Positions 47,239 to 49,149 of a DNA stretch of 64,000 nt are shown here, piece by piece. How positions within the stretch are numbered: the stretch's first letter is position 1; each line of letters begins with the position of its first letter. The stretch covers positions 3,552,001-3,616,000 of the forward strand of contig OZ250169.1 of assembly GCA_965237955.1 (NCBI GenBank). Reading direction: 5' to 3'. The stretch comes from Candidatus Marinacidobacterales bacterium (GTDB lineage Bacteria > Acidobacteriota > Vicinamibacteria > Marinacidobacterales > SMYC01). Under the pieces are notes generated by a model. That model was not told where the DNA came from, searched no databases, and was given only the letters and a program-made list of their open reading frames with translations. Both the position numbers and the translations under genes were made by a program.

Positions 47239-47479
47239 GGTGCTTCCGCAAGCAAGTGTTGGTGGCTGCCACGTAACCCGTTCTCGTGCTAGAGTTTGAG
47301 CTTGATTTCTAGAGACGCAGTTCTTTCTACGATGCCGGCTGGGCTGACCACGCGGTGCCTGACCTTCAAGGATGTCTTCGTGTGCACGCCGACATGCTTA
47401 TTTGGCGTGCGCCGACACAGGCAGGCCAACTGACACTAGCATTCAAACGCGGCGTAGCAACATATCTGGACTCCTCTAG

Positions 47480-47772
47480 TCAAGCCCCTTTCTTAATAAA
47501 TCTTCCATCGAAGCTGCGCATCCATCGCGTCGTGACGAGTGGGTCAGACTGCAAACGTATCTTCGGCCTCAGTGAGGAGCGTCTTGGGTGCTCCGGGCCA
47601 TGATGGAAAATCCGCGCGCGAGGAGCCAATCACTTTGAACGACCTCTTAGGGCCAGTGTTGCTATCGGCTTGACCCCGCGCCGGTCCGACCGGTACGCCA
47701 TCAGTTGGATGGGTATCGTCGCAGCCTCTTTTGGAAGGGAAAAAGGAAAACACGAAAGTGGAGCCTCTAAGT
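47480..47772 (-). ncRNA. Putative bridge/seek RNA
   Basis: Contains segments matching the reconstituted target and the circle junction (see findings); RNA boundaries are approximate. Confidence 0.75.
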
Positions 47773-48804
47773 CTAAGCGGCCATCGGCGACTGGAATTCA
47801 CTCTCGCGGGTGGAGACGGCCCAGACGATCCGGGCGAGTTTGTTGGCGACAGCAATCACGGCCTTGTTGTGTCCCCGCGAGCGGTGGACCTTCCGAGCCC
47901 AGGCGCGGAGCTTGTCGGGCGGGCTCTTACTGACGTTCGCCGCGCGGAGCACGGCGCGCCCGCCCTGGGTGAGGAGCATACGGAGGTAGGAGTCGCCACG
48001 CTTGGTGATGCGTCCGAGGCGGCGAATGTCGCCACTGGAGTTTTCCTTGGGAACTAGGCCGAGGTAGCTCGAGAAGCGGCGCCCCGATGGGAAGCGGCGA
48101 AGATCGCCGACGAAGCCCACGATGGCGGTCGCGGTCAGAAGTCCGATGCCGGGAATGGCGAGAAGTCGTTGGACTTCAGGAAGCTGCTTGGTGAGCGCCT
48201 TGAGCTCGTGCTCGATGCCAGCGCACTTGTCCTTGAGTTCTCGAATCTCGGAGCAGGCATCACGGAGATGCGAACGGAGCACGTCGGGCAAATCAGAATC
48301 AGCGTCTTCGACGAGTTCGAAGAGGGCGGGCACGACGAAGTGAGCGCCCTTTGGGATGATGAATCCGAGTTCGCGCAGGATCCCGCGTACGGCATTGATG
48401 CGTGCGGTCCGTGTGGAGAGCCATCCTGAGCGCAGGCGATGGAGCGCGGCGAGGCTGTGCTGGTGCACGGACTTAATGGGCACGGGAAGAATCTCCTCGT
48501 TCCTGTAGGCCTCGAGCAACGCTTTGGCGTCGGCGCGGTCGTTCTTGCTCCCGCGTCGATAGGGCCTCACGAGGTGAGGTGGGAGCAGGACGACGTCGTG
48601 TCCCAACCTTCGGAACGTCCTTGCCCAGAAGTGAGCAGAGCCGCAGGCTTCGAGAAGCACGGTGGCAGCGCTCTGTTTGGCAAAAAACGACACCAACTTG
48701 GGTCGACTCACACGGAGTTGCTTGGACACCTTCCCCGCTTCTCCCGAGATGGCAATCTCGAAGACGTTCTTTGCAAGATCCACAGCGATCGTCGTATCTT
48801 TCAT
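47773..48804 (-). CDS. IS110-family DEDD recombinase
   Basis: AVDLAK, LEACG, KNDRADA, GLVPKENSSG; AGGAGG RBS. Confidence 0.95.
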   Translation of the reverse strand: MKDTTIAVDLAKNVFEIAISGEAGKVSKQLRVSRPKLVSFFAKQSAATVLLEACGSAHFWARTFRRLGHDVVLLPPHLVRPYRRGSKNDRADAKALLEAYRNEEILPVPIKSVHQHSLAALHRLRSGWLSTRTARINAVRGILRELGFIIPKGAHFVVPALFELVEDADSDLPDVLRSHLRDACSEIRELKDKCAGIEHELKALTKQLPEVQRLLAIPGIGLLTATAIVGFVGDLRRFPSGRRFSSYLGLVPKENSSGDIRRLGRITKRGDSYLRMLLTQGGRAVLRAANVSKSPPDKLRAWARKVHRSRGHNKAVIAVANKLARIVWAVSTRESEFQSPMAA

Positions 48805-49149
48805 TCGGACTCCTCCTTTTCGATGCGTATTCGACTGACTTTGGCACATCGATGCCGTCTATGTCAGCGGAGGAGTCCATTCCATCACTTGATGGCGGAA
48901 GCACCATTTTGGCTGTAATGTAATGCGCCGTAAAGTCTTAGCGTCATCTCACCAACACTTAATGGTGGAAGCACCACTTACCCTGTCCCCGACCGCCAGA
49001 GGATGTGACAAATGCTCTCGAAAAAAACCAATTTTTGCTATCGTCCTTGTTGTCCTGGTTGTCGTTGGGGCTGGGTTCTATTGGCATTGGACTCGAAGCG
49101 TCGACTATGCGTTGGTCGAAATCCGAGCCGCAACTCAAGATCGAGACCT

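Follow-up and report, generated by a model that had tools for sequence, protein, structure and literature searches.

The segment at 47463-48887 (minus strand) is an insertion sequence of the IS1111 group, 1,425 bp long, that lies within the terminal repeat of another resident mobile element, here called family D (positions are those of the window, i.e., the whole stretch of 64,000 nucleotides that was analysed). The element quite probably picks the D repeat by means of two target guides in its RNA and its own ends by means of two donor guides, the left one of which is probably masked by a nearby segment of the same RNA, TGATGG. As an addition to the IS1111 group the element is well supported, and the new feature is the predicted masking helix.

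The recombinase gene (47773-48804, minus strand; 343 aa, with the start codon picked by homologue length) belongs to the IS110 family. The protein matches Pfam DEDD_Tnp_IS110 and Transposase_20 and has the features of IS110 membership, a DEDD RuvC-like domain (D9, E52, D89, D92) and a C-terminal Tnp domain with the SG motif (S257-G258). It scores 308.9 bits against NCBIfam transpos_IS110, whose cut-off is 140. Among plasmid elements its best named match is ISPa25, at 46.3% identity. Only two solved structures match it, IS621 and ISCro4, both weakly (E 2e-08 for IS621), and no IS1111-group protein was found among the solved structures.

According to the text of PMC11187229, IS1111 elements have subterminal inverted repeats placed about 7 bp in from the left end and 3 bp in from the right. 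In the element at hand, the left repeat, TGGACTCCTC (48870-48879, minus strand), and the right repeat (47467-47476, minus strand) are perfect over 10 bp and lie 8 and 4 bp from the ends, which amounts to 7 and 3 plus one mismatched outer pair. The non-coding region 3' of the gene is 310 bp long, the protein falls within the 330-350 aa range of IS1111, and the IS1111 trait of one target in one orientation with no target duplication holds as well (24 of 25 left ends; end dinucleotides equal in just 4 of 47 relatives). The initial annotation of an IS1111-type element is supported by the recombinase domains, the subterminal repeats and the downstream non-coding region. No circle junction was found in the contigs of four runs, nor any head-to-tail copy in the genome; the RNA-labelled runs contain 0.05-0.41 of the words and, being contigs only, cannot reveal transcripts. 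The linear element has no sigma-70-like promoter; reading the sequence onward from TTGACT (47483-47478) over the predicted circle junction gives no -10 match at a suitable spacing.

A long guide (bridge or seek) RNA domain is predicted from the consensus fold and pair counts to occupy 47545-47730 on the minus strand (the ends are approximate), with an outer closing helix of 47726-47720 and 47553-47547. It has no match in Rfam. The homologues used were the 80 best of 592 metagenome matches plus genomic relatives; an RNA model made from 28 non-coding ends gave 78 matches in 83 loci, and 75 distinct long ones were parsed. Five segments of this RNA had been picked out beforehand, and all five are where they were said to be. 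Four are guides, all on the minus strand: the left target guide TAGCAA-CA-CT (47655-47664), the right target guide CAAAG-TG-AT (47629-47637), which takes in the core and a handshake-like AT, the left donor guide TTCCAT-CA (47601-47608), whose predicted partner within the long RNA is 47703-47698, and the right donor guide AGATA-CG-TT (47554-47562). When the 293-nt non-coding end was dinucleotide-shuffled 5,000 times, neither the 10-nt left target guide nor the set of four guides ever arose (0/5,000 each), and the 9-nt left donor guide arose at a frequency of 0.0008, while each guide 5-mer taken singly did so at 0.12-0.13.

Covariation was assessed without L077 and L029, the discovery element and its sister, and, for the right guides and the dinucleotides, without two incomplete rows, leaving 55-57 homologues with a readable end; the permutation p-values for guide pairings ignore kinship. 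The left target guide matches its own target at 5.20 of 6 positions, against 3.45 when permuted (n=55, best of four registers), and the right target guide at 3.04 of 4, against 1.45 (n=56). Both sit in an internal loop of the consensus fold, which supports this part of the initial annotation. The right donor guide is supported as well: it covaries with the donor (3.91 of 4 against 2.81 permuted, n=55), following the right end in 45 of 46 cells that depart from the consensus. Such covariation supports the predicted RNA-guided reading of the right end. The handshake in the target loop gives 1.79 of 2 against 1.65 permuted, and that in the donor loop is weak (p=0.05 for all sequences, 0.20 for those held out). 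The match of the left donor guide to the donor, taken overall, is not above permutation (5.75 against 5.62, p=0.07). The sequence match claimed for it in the initial annotation is present, but it does not lie in a simple open loop, for in the consensus fold it is paired with TGATGG.

The genome also holds a diverged copy of the element (L108, G000:C1:5245812-5247243; 91% DNA identity) in a different target, with both target guides changed accordingly; its left guide reads 7 bases, and that of the main element reads 6. Among relatives (L031, L114, L118, L132, L152 and L156), the left target guide starts anywhere from 5 to 8 bases away from the cut, and the register of the right guide is fixed.

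TGATGG is part of the fifth segment, TGATGGCG (47696-47703, minus strand), which is a motif conserved in the family and complementary to the left donor guide. In the consensus fold, TGATGG pairs with CCATCA of that guide and closes the target arm within the donor multi-loop. On the model-fitted alignment, 93.6% of the cells of the helix are paired, with exchanges such as GC48/CG25, GC59/AU13 and UA68/CG3. In 45 held-out sequences, aligned without structure, TGATGG paired with its own partner at 5.51 of 6 positions versus 4.58, and of the 18 changes that parsimony places at motif positions 2-6 on a tree of 78 tips, 15 fall together with one in the guide. Being the complement of the left donor guide and varying in step with it, TGATGGCG mimics the left end of the element, and consensus fold and covariation alike predict the left donor guide, not the target, as its partner. 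The complement is found also in ISPa25 and ISPa62, in IS5075, ISKpn2 and another six plasmid elements when aligned to the model (two of them scoring weakly) and, by eye, in the sequences of ISPa11 and ISKpn4 and less clearly ISEc11 given in Supplementary Table 1 of PMC11187229. All this points to an anti-guide helix conserved compensatorily across the group, with a role that is predicted, and TGATGGCG likely holds the left donor guide locked through internal pairing of the long RNA.

Folding of single sequences seldom favors the helix, which exceeds a probability of 0.5 in just 4 of 73 cases and stands at 0.00 in this element. Here, TGATGG is taken instead by a local hairpin with CCCATC (47708-47713, minus strand; pair probability 0.99), predicted to compete for it in this lineage (0.97-1.00 in L077, L108 and L029). 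Formation of the helix would accordingly depend on protein, or else the RNA would alternate between two states, the helix being one. The notion that TGATGG is a mere local hairpin stem was rejected, as it fits only this lineage and some others (upstream partner above 0.5 in 21 of 73).

Perhaps the helix is permanent. The left donor guide would then be a retired one, the left end would be read by protein via the subterminal repeat, and these would be bridge RNAs of three guides. This is an appreciable possibility, though distinctly the lesser one. Among 57 non-consensus cells of the guide, 41 are compensated by TGATGG and only 11 match the donor; the left guide tracks 18 of 59 changes in the left end, as against the nearly complete record of the right guide; and a short RNA of 82 nt is enough for ISEc11 to move, according to the text of PMC11187229. 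A retired guide, however, would not be expected to change together with the donor, as this one does at positions 3 and 6 in 7 of 7 instances (the core positions do so in 1 of 14, position 5 in 0 of 5). These instances include a triple switch in L195 (ISKpn4-like) and L196 (ISPa62), where the left end reads CTGT, the guide ACAG and the motif CTGT.

Or perhaps there is no helix, and TGATGG is a second motif that reads DNA or binds protein, covarying with the left donor guide only indirectly. The rarity of the helix in single-sequence folds would then be natural, and TGATGG does resemble the left end weakly (4.70 versus 4.55, p=0.03). But the pair at guide position 7 flips between G-C and C-G in 6 of 7 changes, during which the donor changes once, and reading of DNA cannot account for this. 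We consider this explanation improbable and prefer the one in which TGATGG masks the left donor guide.

When all copies in the genome and their flanks were mapped, 24 of 25 left ends proved to lie at one position of the family-D terminal repeat, so the initial annotation was right to see the target as the terminal repeat of a resident IS or MITE. The 25 right ends comprise 18 that run into the D repeat, 6 joined to internal positions of the IS and 1, that of the diverged copy, elsewhere. In contigs of two related Candidatus Marinacidobacterales, all 31 left ends found in CBDCNP lie in the same D repeat, and 6 of 11 in CBDCYI lie outside D. Within the window, excising 47463-48887 restores TAGCAA-CA-CTTGATGGCGGAAGCACC, and the predicted circle junction also reads as had been claimed. 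The host is a D-family MITE, 242 bp once rejoined, whose body and intact far end occupy 47239-47462 and whose interrupted terminal repeat continues, by sequence and comparison of copies, in the outer 18 bp at 48888-48905. Abutting it at 48906-48975 is an end fragment of another D subfamily, with no guide match. The D ends noted earlier at 5474, 27740 and 47239 and those ending at 48975 and 50074 are indeed relatives, but none has the full guide-matched site, and the one at 47239 is the far end of the host MITE itself.

The full guide match, CAAG-TG-TTGCTA, is kept in none of 153 uninterrupted D ends: the left arm is present in 8, all without CAAG, and CAAG-TG in 42, all without the left arm. 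Matching sites have all been filled and near-matches spared, in effect a natural mismatch scan. At the 24 occupied sites CAAG is unaltered throughout. Two D ends (G000:C1:3087653 and 7995414) lack 3 bp exactly at the insertion point, where other D ends stop; they are possibly footprints of imprecise excision that destroyed the target.

Family D has 226 end-like matches at 4 or fewer mismatches, some of them by chance and most of them MITE ends. Judged by its sequence, it is an IS1-like IS plus its MITEs, with putative membership in IS1: NCBIfam transpos_IS1 is the best match to the D protein (E 5.9e-22) at 78.6 bits, below the cut-off of 100, and the match to Pfam DDE_Tnp_IS1 is also below cut-off. 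The protein is encoded in a single frame with zinc-ribbon, helix-turn-helix and DDE-like parts. An apparently autonomous D element of 1,197 bp with an IS1-like frame lies at G000:C1:3086457-3087653 (L107), and the genome has three near-full-length copies, 83-100% identical. The terminal repeats, about 23 bp beginning GGT, presumably resemble those of IS1. Members of the IS1 family duplicate 8-9 bp of target. No target duplication of 4 bp or more was found in 47 pairs of D ends, nor any matching pair of 9-bp flanks among 174 ends; later rearrangement may have erased duplications.

The occupancy of D ends might also reflect the spread of a composite unit, D plus IS, by the IS1-like transposase, and indeed three copies have a common flank and one common 16-bp duplication. 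But several D subfamilies, differing in bodies and flanks, house IS copies that are nearly identical (15 full-length frames at about 100%), and every fully matched D end is filled, which makes such spread a very improbable explanation.

Least probable of all is the proposal of the initial annotation that TGATGGCG is itself a guide, pairing with the target beside the left target guide over as many as 18 contiguous base pairs and so explaining the preference for D. It is not without attractions. The match here is 8 of 8 and contiguous, the two perfect 11-mer sites outside D are both empty, and the occupied sites retain TCAAG even though the right guide, in register, reads CAAAG. Yet of the two empty sites one is located inside a long open frame, and a one-base bulge in the right guide could also account for TCAAG. 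In the correct register the match scores 2.26 of 8, versus 2.48 permuted (p=0.98, n=57); of six registers tried, offset 4 alone gave p=0.045, which is not significant given six tries. Seven homologues carry the exact 8-mer, six of them with unrelated targets. In 5,000 shuffles, exact TGATGGCG arose at a frequency of 0.0036 and any 8-mer of the 26-bp target at 0.14. The proposed extension, CGCCATCA, is altered in 8 of the 24 occupied sites (alterations that may postdate insertion), and the CBDCYI left ends outside D belong to elements whose RNA carries the same TGATGGCG. The annotation had made the idea depend on the motif varying among homologues with different targets; it is instead invariant in them and in the diverged copy within the genome, and the extended guide is thereby refuted. 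A single relative (L177, at 500-560 and 1698-1893; 39% identical and inserted in another repeat) is the sole case in 57 homologues where TGATGGCG matches the target at 8 of 8, and its flank has TCCGCCATCAAG in common with the D target.

The left-end TG (48887-48886) is the element's own and the dinucleotide at 47461-47462 the target's, as assigned from relatives, where the right-end dinucleotide is that of the target, tracked by both right-hand guides, and the left-end dinucleotide that of the element. The CA core of the initial annotation is thus shared by target and donor in this element, but by chance; in 43 of 47 relatives the core is not shared, and it is no duplication there. The pattern fits exchange of the top strand with cleavage 3' of the core, as described in the texts of PMC11208158 and 10.1101/2025.10.25.684509, together with the lack of duplication in IS1111.

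Some junctions carry duplications. Outside the window, at G000:C1:2861921-2862420 (minus strand), eight head-to-tail units of 48-62 bp lie upstream of an IS left end; they begin at any of three points, and every one stops precisely at the insertion tip, CCATCAAG; other left ends show duplications of 79 bp and 16 bp. At six places in G000 (1134011, 3027775, 3052308, 3052600, 3052996 and 7864497), the right-end tip is joined to internal positions of the IS, with duplication of the guide-RNA cassette. Joints of this kind occur also in L023, L028-L031 and runs X1 and X2, one of them in short-read contigs of two other runs. The second base after the tip is G in all 16 distinct junctions, left and right sides counted together, in an element that is 28% G; there were 17 before L028 (TC) was dropped as a chance match inside the guide loop. 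G at this position is predicted by both right-hand guides. These one-ended duplications at both junctions match the half-match activity already described, and the class is not new.

A mechanism may be pieced together as follows. As in published work on IS110 and IS1111, the element would circularise, and the complex of recombinase and RNA would open the target, cut one strand beside the core and exchange it. Exchange of one strand would leave the target's dinucleotide at one junction and the element's at the other, with no duplication. In the long RNA, TGATGG would form a helix stabilised by protein, closing the target arm and occupying the left donor guide. Masking might end when the element's left end displaces TGATGG, or when the RNA is processed to a short, target-only form that lacks it. 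The tandem duplications, whose ends coincide with the cut positions, would come from one-sided reactions by the same enzyme. One might speculate further, and tentatively, that IS1111 RNAs carry a copy of the left end as an anti-guide switch that times donor capture and excision, and that the hairpin of this lineage sequesters the lock and may underlie the saturation of sites.

Much of this has precedent in the texts of PMC11187229, PMC11208160, PMC10849738, PMC11208158, PMC13604230, PMC12288879, PMC13626964, 10.1101/2025.10.25.684509, 10.64898/2026.08.14.744561 and 10.64898/2026.08.31.748434, which between them cover seek and bridge RNAs, the targeting by IS1111 of attC and of other elements' repeats, donor regions with multi-loops, half-match reactions, and tandem expansion. 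The text of PMC11187229 treats target matches only and leaves open the role of the long seekRNA, and donor guides of IS1111 were assigned, in the text of PMC11208160, by inspecting a few elements. A search of literature text, as distinct from figures, bioRxiv supplements and most subscription papers, turned up neither an internal RNA partner of the left donor guide nor an IS1111 element aimed at IS1-type repeats. Published drawings (the consensus structures in Fig. 6d of PMC11208160 and folds of long seekRNAs) may contain the helix already.

The attC-targeting elements discussed in the text of PMC11187229 (ISPa25, ISKpn4, ISPst6, ISPa21 and ISPa62) have the same RNA architecture, the model scoring 76.8-103.2 bits at 4 of 4 loci, as well as a downstream non-coding region, subterminal repeats and no target duplication. 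Many metagenome relatives of this element have right flanks of the GTTRR type, as in attC-type targets, whereas the element itself aims at an IS1-like terminal repeat. It may be regarded as an ordinary but unusually clean case, whose guide has come to address an IS1-like repeat in place of integron-type sites. IS4321 and IS5075 reportedly target the terminal repeats of the Tn21 family. They too are IS1111-group elements sited in the terminal repeat of another mobile element, and IS5075 has the same pair of complementary segments, but protein identity is 34.2%, and the host here is IS1-like, with MITEs.

The IS621 bridge RNA, as described in the texts of PMC11208160, PMC11208158 and PMC13626964, has in common with this one four guides, a core and a handshake-like dinucleotide in the target loop. 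It differs in that here the RNA lies at the right end, with the target arm nested in the donor multi-loop; in that the left donor guide of this group has an internal RNA partner, with which it is paired in the consensus fold, and tracks the donor only at positions 3 and 6; and in that the core, though shared in this element, is not shared by target and donor in most relatives. In the half-match reactions and tandem expansion of IS110 (main texts of 10.64898/2026.08.14.744561 and 10.64898/2026.08.31.748434, where the word IS1111 does not appear), repeat units or partial duplications are likewise anchored at one boundary; the anchors here are the target-side tip and the right-end tip, with the invariant G second. 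If the helix is real, then reprogramming an IS1111 editor at the left donor guide would require a matching change in the masking strand.

A second repeat family, ending GTCCTGTGCCAAAACTC, is present at 49144-49180 and 50118-50150 of the window, beside an IS481/IS3-like integrase frame (50605-51765). D ends adjoin this family at no fewer than 7 places and share one other flank 16 times, hinting at an additional layer of nesting. On one side of the element, two adjacent frames (44658-47098, minus strand) of 527 and 327 aa contain glycine/alanine-rich hydrophobic stretches and have no Pfam match, and on the other, at 52201-53949 (minus strand), lies a gene for a collagenase-like M9 peptidase (Pfam E 4.3e-87).
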